Below, one piece after another: positions 22,315-54,748 of a stretch of 64,000 nucleotides of DNA (positions are counted from its first letter, which is position 1; each line of letters begins with the position of its first letter). The stretch comes from Terriglobia bacterium (lineage in GTDB: Bacteria; Acidobacteriota; Terriglobia; Terriglobales; Acidobacteriaceae). The notes under the pieces are model-generated. The model made no database searches. It had not been told where the DNA came from and was given only the letters and a program-made list of their open reading frames with translations. The DNA is taken from contig CAVXVR010000004.1 of NCBI GenBank assembly GCA_963765285.1, forward strand, positions 84,253-148,252, written 5' to 3'. The position numbers were made by a program, and so were the translations under genes.

Positions 22315-22611
22315 TTAGCGACTCCTATACTTTGATATTCTCTGGGCGCCATTGGCTCTGGAGCTCATCATCGCGTGCCTCAACAAAAGATTCGCCCTCG
22401 TCTGGTACCCCCTGCCAAACGTTTTCAGCCAGTTCAAAACATCCACGTCTAGCCGTATCGTCACCGGCCTCTTCGGAGGACGGTAGAACTTCCCGATCTC
22501 AGCCCGGCTCCAGTCGACCACAGCGGGCATGTCCGAGAAATCAATGTCCTCGTCCTTTTTTGTCGCGATAGCGGCGATGTCTCTTTTTTGCTCCTTGGTT
22601 AGCTTCCTCAT
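22315..22611 (-). CDS. brnA: BrnA-family antitoxin (ribbon-helix-helix)
   Basis: DIDFSDMPAV..., KRPVTIRLDVDVLNWLKTFGRGYQTRANLLLRHAM matches the BrnA pattern IDFSDIP...IRLD.DVL.W.K..G.GYQTR.N..LR. ATG 22611 or 22626. Confidence 0.6.
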   Translation of the reverse strand: MRKLTKEQKRDIAAIATKKDEDIDFSDMPAVVDWSRAEIGKFYRPPKRPVTIRLDVDVLNWLKTFGRGYQTRANLLLRHAMMSSRANGAQRISKYRSR

Positions 22612-22722
22612 ATGCGTTCCTTTCATGCGCTTGGGCGGAACGTGCGGAAAAGCCGTCTCAAAACGTACTTCGTGCTTGAGCAGATTTCGGCGGTTTTTGT
22701 GTTCGTCCCACTCGAAATGCAT
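22612..22722 (-). pseudogene. brnT: BrnT-toxin remnant (first ~24 codons only), in frame with brnA
   Basis: MHFEWDEHKNRRNLLKHEVRFETA is the BrnT N-terminus (M.FEWD..K...N..KHG.SFEEA). Homology then stops, where about 65 further residues would be expected. Confidence 0.5.
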
Positions 22723-22972
22723 GGGCTGACTCAGTACGAAAGCAGAATAATCTGAGAATTCGCATATGTCAATACATATGTACGTACATAAGAAACGCAC
22801 GATCCGTTTTTCTGAGCGGTCCCTGTTCCATATCAGCTGTGCTCGCCTTGTCCAGTTCGGGAAGCATGCCGTCCCATCCCCCAAAATCCCCCTTGCCTCG
22901 TTGCCTCCGGGTGTAGAATCAACTTGTAGCAGAAAGCTTCACGGGACCCGCCACCCGTTTCCGAGGCCGCAG

Positions 22973-24016
22973 ATGAACGTCCACATCAGCTACAAGCTGC
23001 ATCGCACACCTCAACTGGAAAAAAACCTCAACCATCTGATTGACAAGCTGCGCAAACGGCTGCAGGTGTTTCGCCCTGAGCTGGTGCATTTGAAAGGAGC
23101 GATCGAGCAAAACTCTCCGCGGGAAGGAACCACCGTTTCTCTGAACCTGCGCCTTCCCTCCGGCCAGCTGGCGGCCCAGAAATCGGCAACCGCCCCCGAA
23201 GCCGCTATCAAAAGCGCCTTCGATGATCTCTTGCAGCAGGTTACTCGCCACAAAGACCTCCTGCGCAGTTCGCATAAATGGCAGCGCCGGCGCACCCAGA
23301 ACGGCCGTCTTCAAAGCCAGGTTCCGTTTGAACAGACCATCGCGGCCGTCCAGACACCCACCGTTTCGCCCGAAGACGTCCGACTTTACGTCAATGCAAA
23401 CCTTTCGCGTCTCGAGCGCTTTGTAGAACGCGAACTGGTGTTTCGAGAAGCCGCGGAACAGATTCTGCCCGACGCTGTTTCCAAAGATGAAGTCATCGAT
23501 GAGGCTGTCGCCCGTGCCTTGGGCGATGACATCGAGAAACCGGAACGCCTTTCACTCGAGCCCTGGCTCTACCGGCTCGCCATCCACGCCATCACGGATC
23601 TGGCTGCGCGCAGCCGCGACATAGTGCCGTCGGTCCACCTGGGAGATTCTGCCCGTACTCCTAATGTCCGTGCCAGCGACGAACCCGGCCTGCAGTTTCA
23701 CCAGCCCGACGAGACCTTGACCGAAGAAAACGTCATCGCCGATCGCCGTTTGTCGACGCCGGAAGACATCGCCTATTCCGACGAAATGATCGCCCTGGTG
23801 CAACTGGCTCTTCACGGCGCCAAGCGTACCGACCGCGAAGCTTTTGTGTTGAACATCATGGAAGGATTTTCTGCCGAGGAGACCGCCGTGATCACCGATC
23901 GCCGGCCCGAAGAAGTGCGCCTGTCGGTCGCGGCCGTGCGCGAACATCTGCGGCGTTCACCTCCTCTGGCTGACCGCTTCAAGAACACAATGTTTCACAA
24001 CGCCGCTGCGGACTAA
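22973..24016 (+). CDS. fusion protein: N-terminal HPF/RaiA (S30AE) ribosome-binding domain + C-terminal ECF-type sigma-70 regions 2 and 4
   Basis: Residues 1-105 (MNVHISYKLHRTPQLEKNLNHLIDKLRKRL...APEAAIKSAFDDLLQQVTRHKD) are HPF-like. LEPWLYRLAIHAITDLAAR is region 2-like and REAFVLNIMEGFSAEETAVITDRRPEEVRLSVAAVREHLRR is region 4-like. Start trimmed from 22766 to ATG 22973. Confidence 0.7.
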   Translation: MNVHISYKLHRTPQLEKNLNHLIDKLRKRLQVFRPELVHLKGAIEQNSPREGTTVSLNLRLPSGQLAAQKSATAPEAAIKSAFDDLLQQVTRHKDLLRSSHKWQRRRTQNGRLQSQVPFEQTIAAVQTPTVSPEDVRLYVNANLSRLERFVERELVFREAAEQILPDAVSKDEVIDEAVARALGDDIEKPERLSLEPWLYRLAIHAITDLAARSRDIVPSVHLGDSARTPNVRASDEPGLQFHQPDETLTEENVIADRRLSTPEDIAYSDEMIALVQLALHGAKRTDREAFVLNIMEGFSAEETAVITDRRPEEVRLSVAAVREHLRRSPPLADRFKNTMFHNAAAD

Positions 24017-24034
24017 CCTCAGGAGGAACCTGGG

Positions 24035-25210
24035 ATGATTACTCGCGAACAACTTCGTGAGCTGGCTCAATTCCAATCGGAGGGCGCGGAGTGCGCCCTG
24101 AGTTTTTACTACCAGCCGCAGACGCCGCGCGACCGGTCGCACCGTGAAGAATCAATCCTGGCCAAAGACCTGGTGCGCTCGGCCTTGCGTGCAGCAGAAA
24201 AGAACGGGAAAGATGGACGCCTGCATGCCGACTTGAACCGGATGCTCGAGCTGGTCGGCGAGTTCCGCGACACTCGCGCACATGCCAAGGCCATATTCGC
24301 ATGCGGCGACCACAACATTTGGCTGGAATTCGACTTGCCCCGGCAACTTCCCGGTACTCAGCTCTTCGTGAACCGGCGGTTCCACCTCAAGCCCCTGGCC
24401 CTTTTGCTGGGCGCGCAGACCCGCTTGTGGCTGGCGTTGGTCGATCGCCACCGGGCGCGCTTCTTCGATGTGCGCCTCGATGAACTCAAGGAACACGAAG
24501 CACTTTTCCACCCGCTGCCTCATCGTGGCCGGGGCGATGGCTATGCGGGCTACGACGCGGGCCACTCCGAACGCAGTGTGCGCGATGAAGTTTTGCATCA
24601 CTTCAAAAACGTTGCCGCTCACTTGCAGGAGATGCTGGAGAAGAAAGTTTTCGATAACCTGATCATCGGATGCCAGGACACCAACTGGCCCGAATTCGAA
24701 TCTCACCTGCATCCCTACGTACGAAAGCGCCTGCTCGGGCATTTCTCAGCCGAGCTCGGAACCATCACCGAGGAGCAAATCCGCGAACAGGCAAGCCGCA
24801 TTCAGCGCGAAGCGCTCGATCGGCGGCGACAGAGCCTGGTGCGCGAAGCGCTCTCGCTGGCGAAGAGCAATGGCCGGGGCGTCACCGGATTGCGCCGCGT
24901 CCTCCGTTCCCTGGAACTGGGCGAAGTGCAAACCTTGCTTCTTGGCGACAAGTATCGCGCCCAAGCGGTTCAATGCACGAATTGTGGTCATCTCGACGCC
25001 CACATGGTCCACTTCTGCCCGGTCTGTGGCCGCAGCACGCAGGAATTGGAGGATGTGAGTGATGCCATCATTCCCTCAGCCATCCTGCGCGATATCGAAT
25101 TGCTTTACGTGAAAGACGATCCCGACTTTGACATGGCCGGCAACATCGCCGCTCTGCTTCGTTTCCGCGCCGACCAAAGCTCCGGCAGCCGCATCGCGGC
25201 CGCGTCGTAG
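24035..25210 (+). CDS. bacterial eRF1/Pelota-like protein (baeRF-type) with Zn-ribbon insert and no GGQ
   Basis: M-domain-like LWLALVDRHRARFF...PHRGRGDGYAGYD...VLHHFKNVA...LIIGCQ. C-domain-like GRGVTGLRRVLRSLELGEVQTLLL. CTNCGH...FCPVCG. AGGAGG SD; 18 nt after the upstream gene. Confidence 0.65.
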   Translation: MITREQLRELAQFQSEGAECALSFYYQPQTPRDRSHREESILAKDLVRSALRAAEKNGKDGRLHADLNRMLELVGEFRDTRAHAKAIFACGDHNIWLEFDLPRQLPGTQLFVNRRFHLKPLALLLGAQTRLWLALVDRHRARFFDVRLDELKEHEALFHPLPHRGRGDGYAGYDAGHSERSVRDEVLHHFKNVAAHLQEMLEKKVFDNLIIGCQDTNWPEFESHLHPYVRKRLLGHFSAELGTITEEQIREQASRIQREALDRRRQSLVREALSLAKSNGRGVTGLRRVLRSLELGEVQTLLLGDKYRAQAVQCTNCGHLDAHMVHFCPVCGRSTQELEDVSDAIIPSAILRDIELLYVKDDPDFDMAGNIAALLRFRADQSSGSRIAAAS

Positions 25211-25391: not shown

Positions 25392-26627
25392 ATGACCATC
25401 TCGCGCCGCGATTTTCTTACCTCAGCCGTGGTGGGTTCGCTTTCCGTAGGATTAGCCGGTCAGGAATCAAAGCCCGCCCCGCAAAAAAGCGCGTCGCCAA
25501 GTCCTTCCGGCCGCCGTCCGATCATCATTTGTGCGCACAACGGCTTCAATTACCTGGACGATGCTTATGCCTTCCTCAAGAACGGTGGCGACACGCTCGA
25601 TGCAGCTCTTCGCGTAGTCAAAGGGCCCGAGGACGATCCCAAAGATGACACCGTTGGCCTCGGCGGCCTGCCCAACGAAGAAGGCGTGGTCGAACTCGAT
25701 GCCTGCTGCATGCACGGTCCGACCCGCCGCGCCGGCTCCGTTGGGGGCGTCCGCAACATCAAGAATGTTTCCCTGGTTTCGAAAGCCGTGATGGAACACA
25801 CCGGCCACGTGATGCTGGTCGGCGAGGGCGCCGAACGTTTTGCCGTAGCCATGGGTTTCCCCCGCGAAAATCTGCTGACAGAAAACTCACGCAAGATCTG
25901 GCTGCTGTGCAAGGAATTCCATGCCACGGAAAGTTGGTGGGGACCGGGGCCGTCCGATCCGCATTGGCGGCCTCCAGCCACGGCGCCGCAGTCTGAGTTA
26001 TGGGAAGAACGTTTTCGCCGCCTATACGAAATGGCCAGGGATATCGGCATTGAACCGGAATCCCGCTGGGCCGCGATCCGCCGCGTAGTGTTTCCGCCCA
26101 CGGGCACGATTCATTGTTCCGCGCTCAACGACAAGGGAGAAATTTCCGGCTGCACTACCACCAGCGGGCTGGCTTTCAAATTACCCGGACGCCTGGGCGA
26201 CTCCCCCATCATCGGTGCGGGCTGCTACACCGATCAGGATGTGGGTTCCGCCGGCGCGACCGGCAGCGGGGAGGAGAACATCAAGGTCGCAGGTGCGCAT
26301 ACCATCGTCGAAAACATGCGCCGTGGCATGACTCCCCAACAGGCCGGGCTCGACGCGCTTCAGCGTATTGCCCGCAACTACAACAATGACGCGACCAAGC
26401 TCCACTTTTTCGACATGACGTATTACGTCCTGCGCAATGACGGAGCCTATGCCGGTGTGTCGCTCTGGGAGGGTTACGCACCCGGTAAGCCGCATCAGAT
26501 CGCGATCCACGACGGCACCAGGAGGTCCGAAACTACGACAGCGCTATTCAAAGGATGGTCGCAGGAATATCCACCCTTCCCGCCCATCCCCGAAGACTTG
26601 AAGAAGAACTCAGAATACTTGGGATAA
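25392..26627 (+). CDS. Tat-exported Ntn-hydrolase, asparaginase-2 family (isoaspartyl peptidase / glycosylasparaginase-like)
   Basis: MTISRRDFLTSAVVGS (twin-Arg signal), GTIHCSALN (autoprocessing Thr context), GDSPIIGAGCYTD and GATGSGEENIK. Start trimmed from 25128 to ATG 25392 (GGAGG SD). Confidence 0.85.
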   Translation: MTISRRDFLTSAVVGSLSVGLAGQESKPAPQKSASPSPSGRRPIIICAHNGFNYLDDAYAFLKNGGDTLDAALRVVKGPEDDPKDDTVGLGGLPNEEGVVELDACCMHGPTRRAGSVGGVRNIKNVSLVSKAVMEHTGHVMLVGEGAERFAVAMGFPRENLLTENSRKIWLLCKEFHATESWWGPGPSDPHWRPPATAPQSELWEERFRRLYEMARDIGIEPESRWAAIRRVVFPPTGTIHCSALNDKGEISGCTTTSGLAFKLPGRLGDSPIIGAGCYTDQDVGSAGATGSGEENIKVAGAHTIVENMRRGMTPQQAGLDALQRIARNYNNDATKLHFFDMTYYVLRNDGAYAGVSLWEGYAPGKPHQIAIHDGTRRSETTTALFKGWSQEYPPFPPIPEDLKKNSEYLG

Positions 26628-54673: not shown

Positions 54674-54748
54674 GCGGGAGTAGTTCAGCGGTAGAACGCC
54701 AGCTTCCCAAGCTGGATGTCGCCGGTTCGATCCCGGTCTCCCGCTCCA
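54674..54748 (+). tRNA. tRNA-Gly (anticodon CCC), CCA encoded
   Basis: Manual cloverleaf: acceptor GCGGGAG/CTCCCGC, D-arm GTTC..GAAC, anticodon arm CCAGC-TTCCCAA-GCTGG, T-arm GCCGG-TTCGATC-CCGGT, discriminator T, then CCA. Confidence 0.9.

Follow-up and report, generated by a model that had tools for sequence, protein, structure and literature searches.

Why would a ribosome hibernation factor be joined to a domain that looks like a sigma factor, and be encoded directly upstream of a protein with a release-factor fold? The question is raised by two neighbouring genes in a stretch of 64,000 nt from a Terriglobia bacterium (assembly GCA_963765285.1, contig CAVXVR010000004.1, forward-strand positions 84,253-148,252), referred to below as the window. 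An earlier note on this DNA had read the pair as a module that senses the state of the ribosome or rescues it, wired to a dedicated sigma factor. We find that gene 1 encodes an HPF/RaiA–sigma-like fusion protein and gene 2 a Balon-like protein of the baeRF clade, and we lean with modest confidence towards a two-protein ribosome-hibernation module in which the sigma-derived domain serves as an adaptor and not as a promoter-specific sigma factor.

Both open reading frames (ORFs) are intact and lie on the + strand with an intergenic gap of 18 nt; their coordinates, the gap, the AGGAGG within it and the operon structure are as the earlier note had given them.

22973-24016, + strand: gene 1, HPF/RaiA–sigma-like fusion protein, 347 aa (ORF, profile, fold).
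24021-24026, + strand: Shine-Dalgarno sequence AGGAGG of gene 2, within the 18-nt gap (sequence).
24035-25210, + strand: gene 2, Balon-like baeRF family 10 protein, 391 aa (ORF, profile, fold).

A longer gene 1 ORF opens at 22766, yet the start at 22973 (MNVH) is the one read by all aligned homologues; a single homologue, P0104, is called about 20 residues further upstream. No second HPF, sigma-like paralogue or baeRF copy was found in the 64-kb window. The N-terminal part of gene 1 is divided as follows, with the isoelectric point (pI) of each part.

22973-23308, + strand: HPF/RaiA-like module (residues 1-92, pI 10.2) and basic tail (residues 93-112, HKDLLRSSHKWQRRR..., pI 12) (PF02482, fold).

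The Pfam model Ribosomal_S30AE (PF02482) matches residues 10-95 of gene 1 with 29.2 bits against a cut-off of 23.7, and an S30AE match is present in all 21 diverse members of the fusion family that were compared. The AlphaFold model of gene 1 has a mean predicted local distance difference test score (pLDDT) of 62.6, which rises to about 80 in the HPF module, and residues 1-102 follow the order β-α-β-β-β-α. When this model was searched with Foldseek, the top 30 PDB matches were HPF, YfiA and RaiA structures, the best of them E. coli and Vibrio HPF (TMt 0.83-0.85, root-mean-square deviation about 2 Å); the matches include the RaiA of the Balon–RaiA ribosome (8rd8_D, TMt 0.78). The proposal that residues 1 to about 105 form an HPF module is borne out by profile, topology and fold matches alike. 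Within the close family it is the most conserved module of the protein (mean entropy per residue 0.69, followed by 0.76 in the linker between the two sigma-like modules, 0.87 in the σ2-like module and 1.06 in the σ4-like module), and H93 and R105-R107 are invariant across phyla in the fusion proteins. The C-terminal dimerisation domain of long HPF was not detected in gene 1 by Pfam search, the sigma-like C-terminus being found there instead. The place that HPF is known to occupy on the 30S subunit overlaps those of mRNA and tRNA, and by analogy the module would bind the 30S decoding channel of idle ribosomes, for which its basic surface and strong conservation are indirect support.

For the baeRF clade, a persistent operonic link to HPF and a predicted role in blocking the A site during translational shutdown have been described (Burroughs and Aravind, 2019; PMC6514570). 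Balon is a hibernation factor that binds in the A site independently of mRNA, along with RaiA and EF-Tu (Helena-Bueno et al., Nature 2024; PMC10901736). Its genes mostly neighbour raiA, sometimes in operons with alternative sigma factors, and for Balon, Rv2629 and Msmeg1130 there are ribosome-bound structures from cryo-electron microscopy (cryo-EM) as well as genetic data (PMC10901736), so that the earlier statement that baeRF families are known only from comparative genomics is outdated. Gene 2 passes the cut-off of baeRF_family10 (PF18854) by a wide span (77.2 bits, cut-off 27.1, model positions 2-143 of 143) and misses those of the NCBIfam Balon families, with 44.8 against 320 for NF052289 (Rv2629 family) and 42.8 against 330 for NF052287 (AOC03_06830 family). 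Its model reaches a pLDDT of 66.3, with about 80 in the M and C domains, whereas the N-domain and the GGQ-site loop stay below 50. In structure it matches ribosome-bound Msmeg1130 Balon best (8v9l_z; E 3e-17, TM 0.69/0.71, 393 columns), and aRF1, Rv2629 Balon, eRF1 and Psychrobacter Balon come next. The protein had been called Pelota-like; given E values of 1e-17 to 1e-13 for Balon and aRF1 as against the 1e-8 range (2e-8 or worse) for Pelota/Dom34, Balon- or aRF1-like is the apter description. Two features of its sequence deserve separate mention.

24518-24565, + strand: M-domain loop at the GGQ site, P162-x-x-G-R-x-D-G-x-x-G-Y-D-x-G-H177, invariant and without glutamine (alignment).
24974-25027, + strand: four-cysteine zinc ribbon in the C-domain, C314 C317 C328 C331 (invariant in the family).

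Residues 158-182 hold no glutamine at all, and the protein is therefore GGQ-less under any alignment of the loop, as had been claimed together with its aeRF1 fold. Within the clade the only glutamine near the loop is at position 179, in 7 of 26 members, and G172, Y173, D174, G176 and H177 are invariant. This sets the clade apart from the published description of family 10, in which a conserved glutamine was highlighted (PMC6514570), whereas here the loop GRxDGxxGYDxGH is invariant and no glutamine is conserved. The zinc ribbon had been read as an insertion; it is present, with all four cysteines invariant, but it is not a novel insertion, as it aligns with the ribbon of Methanosarcina aRF1 (3ir9). 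Many baeRF families keep a two-strand remnant at this site (PMC6514570) and Balon has a β-hairpin there that contacts EF-Tu (PMC10901736), whereas gene 2 has an intact four-cysteine ribbon. Balon is further marked by an HP motif and a bL27 trap, which in gene 2 would have to be placed in the N-domain and loop modelled at a pLDDT below 50. Gene 2 is Balon-like but represents a more aRF1-like family.

The pair is not a chance arrangement, being conserved in hundreds of genomes. The fusion is encoded at at least 572 loci of species-representative genomes, of which we examined the best 80, all of them metagenome-assembled genomes (MAGs) of Acidobacteriota/Terriglobia. At 71 of the 80 the two genes are adjacent (67 intact, three partial or frameshifted, one cut by the contig) and at the other nine gene 2 is absent; the gap between them is 17-84 nt, with a median of 45, in 67 loci. 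The truncated or frameshifted copies of gene 2 (L019, L024 and L026) may reflect real decay or errors of MAG assembly or sequencing. Among more divergent metagenomic loci (45-60% identity for gene 1, 46-59% for gene 2) the pair is kept in all 23 that have enough downstream sequence; the metagenome scan was seeded with a relative of 34% identity and returned loci nearer to the clade of the window than to the seed. The earlier note had made its reading depend on the two genes being conserved neighbours in relatives, and they are. As for the fusion itself, a word-indexed search gave 4853 clusters, the top 120 of them full-length at 67-100% identity, and an exhaustive search among 1.84 billion representatives yielded no more than 753 matches at E ≤ 0.001, with full-length two-module relatives down to about 27% identity. 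The fusion thus forms a large and discrete family, and its match is not generic ECF (extracytoplasmic function sigma factor) or HPF similarity. The gene order around the pair is stable, running from a radical SAM gene (CofH/MqnC-type) over a variable small insert (toxin-antitoxin or GIY-YIG) to the fusion, the baeRF gene, Asparaginase_2 and GlpX, and the operon is inherited vertically in Terriglobia in this stable context.

Outside the Acidobacteriota, full-length relatives of the fusion at 25-31% identity are carried by proteobacterial plasmids, where they are annotated as 'sigma-28', 'FliA' or 'sigma-70 family' (L082 5001-6152, L083 5001-6173 and L084 4920-6074). One proteobacterial relative exceeds the cut-offs of both S30AE and Sigma70_r4 (for the latter 26.6 against 24.1). 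The plasmid genes lie within heat-resistance/proteostasis islands that encode three Hsp20 proteins, a ClpK-like AAA ATPase, FtsH, HdeD and YfdX1/2, and unannotated ORFs nearby proved to be GroEL and DnaK. The plasmids are large and some are conjugative. No baeRF neighbour was found within 5 kb of these relatives.

The remainder of gene 1 is divided into the following parts.

23369-23617, + strand: σ2-like helical module, residues 133-215 (model helices, weak Sigma70_r2).
23618-23776, + strand: acidic σ2–σ4 linker, residues 216-268, pI 4.3 (conservation; predicted disordered).
23702-23713, + strand: QPDE family signature, residues 244-247 (cross-phylum alignment).
23777-23962, + strand: σ4-like helix-turn-helix module, residues 269-330 (profile match to σE region 4).

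The model shows two helical modules within the C-terminal 200 residues (133-213 and 270-330, pLDDT about 75). Sigma-70 region 2-like and region 4-like segments had been proposed here, and of that proposal the σ2/σ4-like fold and weak profile matches stand, although all sigma models remain under their cut-offs: Sigma70_r2 with 17.2 bits against 24, Sigma70_r4_2 with 16.9 against 25.7, PhyR_sigma-like (PF22233), the best sigma-type Pfam match, with 25.6 against 27, and TIGR02937 with 29.9 against 42.9, the last spanning model positions 12-163 of 165. Foldseek matched σH, σE, AlgU and σL over 190-220 columns (E 9e-4 to 1e-2), and the profile of the fusion family matched region 4 of E. coli σE with E 4e-7. 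The fold, the σE region 4 profile and the near-full coverage of TIGR02937 are good evidence that the module derives from an ECF sigma factor. The evidence that it still works as one is poor. Sigma70_r2 was detected in only one of the 21 diverse members, weakly and in gene 1 itself, and not in the other 20; Sigma70_r4_2 was detected in 19 and PhyR_sigma-like in 18. The WLYR motif of the σ2-like module is conserved across phyla. In the recognition helix of the σ4-like module the buried S318, I319, A322, R323, L326 and R327 are conserved, and the exposed positions 316, 320 and 321 have entropies of 2.2-2.6, among the most variable of the protein, where identity within the family is otherwise about 70%. 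At the start of this helix E314, which aligns with a conserved Thr of σE, is invariant across phyla; the DNA-contacting residues of σE are taken to be those of the σE–DNA structure. No anti-sigma gene was found in the three annotated neighbourhoods examined.

The linker, some 53 residues long, is disordered in the prediction and yet carries the best cross-phylum motif of the whole protein, (F/Y)xQPDExLxxE(D/N). Between acidobacterial and proteobacterial members at 25-28% identity, Q244, P245, D246, E247, E252, P263 and E264 are invariant, and the QPDE motif looks like the signature of the fusion family.

Upstream of gene 1, three further elements bear on how the operon might be controlled.

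22907-22920, + strand: operon-specific promoter-like box CCGGGTGTAGAATC, with a −10-like core TAGAAT at 22914-22919 (conservation).
22940-22959, + strand: 5' leader hairpin, CACGGG, an 8-nt loop and CCCGTT (covariation).
22963-22966, + strand: Shine-Dalgarno sequence GAGG of gene 1, 3 nt after the leader hairpin (sequence).

The box, of 12-14 nt, hardly varies among 77 of 81 loci and keeps there a fixed distance of 60-70 nt upstream of the ATG, with the form cGGGTGTAGAATC across loci, also written GGGTGTAGAATC. Its conservation is far above that of an ordinary promoter. In about 1 Mb of flanking DNA the exact sequence GGTGTAGAAT occurs 64 times, each time upstream of gene 1, and since the box stands only before this operon in that DNA we dropped its reading as a generic housekeeping promoter. 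An ECF-type autoregulatory promoter upstream of gene 1 was likewise considered, and the TAGAAT-type box was found in its place: the core resembles a σ70-type −10 element, unlike the usual ECF-type motif, and no clear −35 partner was seen across the loci. The box is probably also the target of a regulator or of a specific sigma factor. In the leader hairpin, five of the six pairs of the helix are changed on both sides (20 cells), the covariation score was reached in none of 500 shuffles, and 89.7% of the cells are paired compared with 12-53% in slid controls. The leader has no Rfam match; the hairpin could be an element of translational control or one that stabilises the mRNA.

How might the two proteins act together? 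The folds, the order of the domains, the conservation of the operon, the loss of GGQ and the degeneration of the sigma features are shown. Beyond these, we infer that both bind the ribosome, that they occupy it jointly, and that the sigma-like module has a partner of its own. Given the folds, the genomic context and the precedent of Balon and RaiA, gene 2 would sit in the A site and the factor-binding site of idle ribosomes, perhaps also of translating ones, and the basic N-terminal module of gene 1 would plug the decoding channel of the 30S subunit, like RaiA beside Balon in the structure from Psychrobacter. In place of the dimerisation domain of long HPF, gene 1 would carry the ECF-sigma-derived module, with its σ2-like part, acidic QPDE linker and σ4-like part, and this module is more likely a protein-binding adaptor than a promoter-specific sigma factor. 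Its likeliest partner would be the RNA polymerase core and a less likely one an anti-sigma-like protein, as for the sigma-like domain of PhyR; either would tie the state of the ribosome pool to transcription. Of the ribosome-state or rescue module first proposed, the general idea of a ribosome-state module holds, but hibernation is better supported than rescue or surveillance.

Several observations weigh against hibernation with a sigma-derived adaptor. Fold and context only are what point to ribosome binding by this family, both models are of moderate confidence only (pLDDT 62.6 and 66.3), and gene 2, at about 45 bits, falls far under the NCBIfam Balon cut-offs of 320-330. The zinc ribbon stands where Balon has its EF-Tu-binding hairpin, and the binding mode may differ. 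The σ2-like and σ4-like parts are kept in the right order and WLYR is conserved across phyla; with purifying selection on the whole module, genuine sigma activity is possible. Nine of the 80 loci have the fusion without gene 2 and the proteobacterial relatives have no baeRF neighbour, so the fusion does not strictly need its partner. The fusion itself could recognise the operon-specific box, and the reading of the recognition helix depends on which σE residues are taken to contact DNA.

A further step would be a physical link, made by the sigma-derived module, between the machinery of transcription and the pool of ribosomes, a tentative proposal to which we give limited credence. In one version, the availability of the sigma factor would be set by the number of vacant ribosomes able to bind the HPF domain. 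In the other, a tether would park the RNA polymerase core on hibernating ribosomes, for joint storage and reactivation. The acidic QPDE linker might serve as the switch, either by folding onto the basic surface of the HPF module or by reaching into the channel of the polymerase.

The adaptor has to be weighed first against a genuine sigma factor gated by the ribosome, which would bind core polymerase and recognise promoters, and which the HPF module would sequester on vacant ribosomes or release, so that its regulon follows ribosome occupancy. The canonical order of σ2 and σ4, the span of the TIGR02937 match (positions 12-163 of 165), fold matches that are ECF sigma factors within holoenzymes, the closeness of the σ4-like part to σE region 4 and the conservation of WLYR across phyla all fit such a protein. 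The 12-nt operon-specific box might be its autoregulatory target, and the proteobacterial relatives lie in chaperone/heat-resistance islands, a setting that would suit a sigma factor specific to the island. Known ECF group 4 sigma factors with extensions (BldN and SigC at the N-terminus, ECF41/42 at the C-terminus; PMC7826278) likewise combine a σ2–σ4 core with an extra terminal domain, and by analogy such a domain could gate the activity of the core. However, gene 1 differs from them in failing the cut-offs of Sigma70_r2, Sigma70_r4_2 and TIGR02937 and in its unusually long, conserved and acidic linker; terms for the ribosome, S30 or a modulation protein do not occur in the main text of the paper that reclassified ECF sigma factors. 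No sigma hidden Markov model reaches its cut-off, and in 20 of 21 members region 2 escapes detection. The recognition helix varies strongly at its exposed positions and opens with an invariant acidic residue. The TAGAAT core has no −35 partner, and neither an anti-sigma gene nor a typical ECF-type promoter was found at the loci examined. On these grounds the 'dedicated sigma factor' of the earlier note is not established, and we regard a working, ribosome-gated sigma factor as possible but rather unlikely.

Alternatively, the module could be a decoy that titrates an anti-sigma factor encoded elsewhere, with ribosome binding by the HPF domain controlling the partner switch. The model is PhyR, the alphaproteobacterial anti-anti-sigma factor of the general stress response, whose sigma-like domain is, like the module of gene 1, sigma-derived and degenerate-looking at its DNA-contact positions. 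The best sigma-type Pfam match is indeed PhyR_sigma-like (25.6 bits, present in 18 of 21 members), and degenerate DNA-contact positions are what a decoy would show. Against this, the match to PF22233 lies just below its cut-off, gene 1 lacks the receiver domain that PhyR has, and no NepR-like or other anti-sigma gene was found in the neighbourhoods examined; we consider a decoy decidedly unlikely. Less probable still is that the module replaces the dimerisation domain of long HPF in kind, associating with itself and pairing ribosomes into 100S-like particles without any link to transcription. It does occupy the position of that domain, which Pfam did not detect in gene 1, and a 2025 preprint frames such chimeras as replacing a truncated long HPF (10.1101/2025.11.04.686544), but self-association is without support and the strong cross-phylum conservation of the QPDE linker would be left unexplained. 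Finally, rescue or quality control, in which gene 2 would release or split stalled ribosomes like aRF1 or Pelota and gene 1 would mark or report the stall, is very improbable: the aeRF1/Pelota fold, the flagging of baeRF family 10 as possibly keeping the catalytic glutamine (PMC6514570) and a GGQ-site loop that is invariant and therefore functionally important speak for it, but no alignment puts a glutamine at the GGQ position in this clade, the closest structures are hibernation-state Balon complexes, and the HPF domain of the partner fits poorly with an mRNA-loaded stalled ribosome.

How far is this pair new? We found no experimental work on the acidobacterial pair in the literature, and the kind of pairing is already known. 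The baeRF–HPF neighbourhood was published in 2019 (PMC6514570) and chimeras of SigE and HPF in 2025 (10.1101/2025.11.04.686544), which overtakes the novelty that had been claimed for it. Balon and RaiA are the nearest precedent, as there too an aeRF1-fold protein without GGQ is encoded beside a gene of the HPF/RaiA family, and gene 2 superposes best on ribosome-bound Balon. It is nonetheless only 16-20% identical to Balon of Psychrobacter urativorans and to the mycobacterial Rv2629 and Msmeg1130, and in the present pair the RaiA-type partner is fused to a sigma-like module. For baeRF-1 family 10 (PF18854), whose cut-off gene 2 passes, the operonic link to HPF had already been published. Closest to gene 1 are the SigE-HPF chimeras of a November 2025 bioRxiv survey, which describes HPF isoforms without the dimerisation domain fused to Csp, SigE or CBS domains and notes, without functional data, that the chimeric genes are often next to Balon (10.1101/2025.11.04.686544). 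They share with gene 1 an HPF without dimerisation domain joined to a SigE-type domain; the preprint stresses variable location and horizontal spread, whereas the acidobacterial family sits in a fixed chromosomal context. As to a link between the present family and the published 'SigE-HPF' of E. coli pEc78, a DNA search of E. coli genomes with the Brucella homologue found nothing, and none of the 25 plasmid matches listed for gene 1 homologues is from E. coli. The archaeal HibA/Hib proteins (PMC13324472) follow the same design of a ribosome-plugging HPF/RaiA-like domain with a second module, but there the appended module is CBS and the proteins are archaeal, whereas that of gene 1 is sigma-derived and bacterial. 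The present family is a new and very abundant representative of a known kind of pairing. Possibly unreported, as far as we found, are the QPDE signature of the linker, the promoter-like box specific to this operon, the hairpin in the leader, a zinc ribbon that is intact together with a GYDxGH loop that is invariant, and the stability with which Terriglobia inherit the operon vertically.

The surroundings of the operon offer some observations in their own right. The adjacent ORF at 22315-22884 on the minus strand, divergent to gene 1, encodes a BrnA domain preceded by, and fused to, a remnant of only the first 21 positions of BrnT; it looks like a decayed brnTA locus, as had been noted. In other genomes a GIY-YIG gene, or no insert at all, is found at this place between the radical SAM gene and the fusion, an apparent insertion hotspot. 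On the other side, an Asparaginase_2 family gene (25392-26627, 193 bits) lies downstream of gene 2 after a gap of 181 nt; the N-terminus of its product, MTISRRDFL..., looks like a twin-arginine signal. It directly follows gene 2 in 45 of the 80 species loci and directly follows the fusion in six of the nine loci without gene 2. Because of the 181-nt gap it is probably a syntenic neighbour and not a member of the operon. Asparaginase_2 resembles isoaspartyl-peptidase, and in two relatives (L112 and a JGI contig) it lies downstream of the operon while a gene for protein-L-isoaspartate O-methyltransferase (PCMT; 3461-4138 in L112) is found some kb upstream; genes that repair ageing proteins may thus be clustered about the hibernation operon. 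In the whole window, the sole Rfam match at the gathering threshold is one tRNA gene (54674-54745).

Terriglobia rank with the most abundant bacteria of soils, and for much of their life they grow slowly or lie dormant. With at least 572 species-representative loci and thousands of metagenomic protein clusters, the operon may be one of their main systems of ribosome preservation. A role of the pair in hibernation follows from the work on Balon and RaiA and is not in itself surprising. The core question is why an HPF domain is joined to a sigma-derived module that has a deeply conserved linker motif, and the answer could reveal a direct link between hibernation and transcription. The system offers clear experimental handles in its two proteins, which are small and soluble, in the leader hairpin and in a promoter box that is sharply defined. 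If true, the coupling would let ribosome occupancy signal to transcription directly at the level of proteins, conserved in soil bacteria of a dominant group and present in the heat-resistance islands of proteobacteria.

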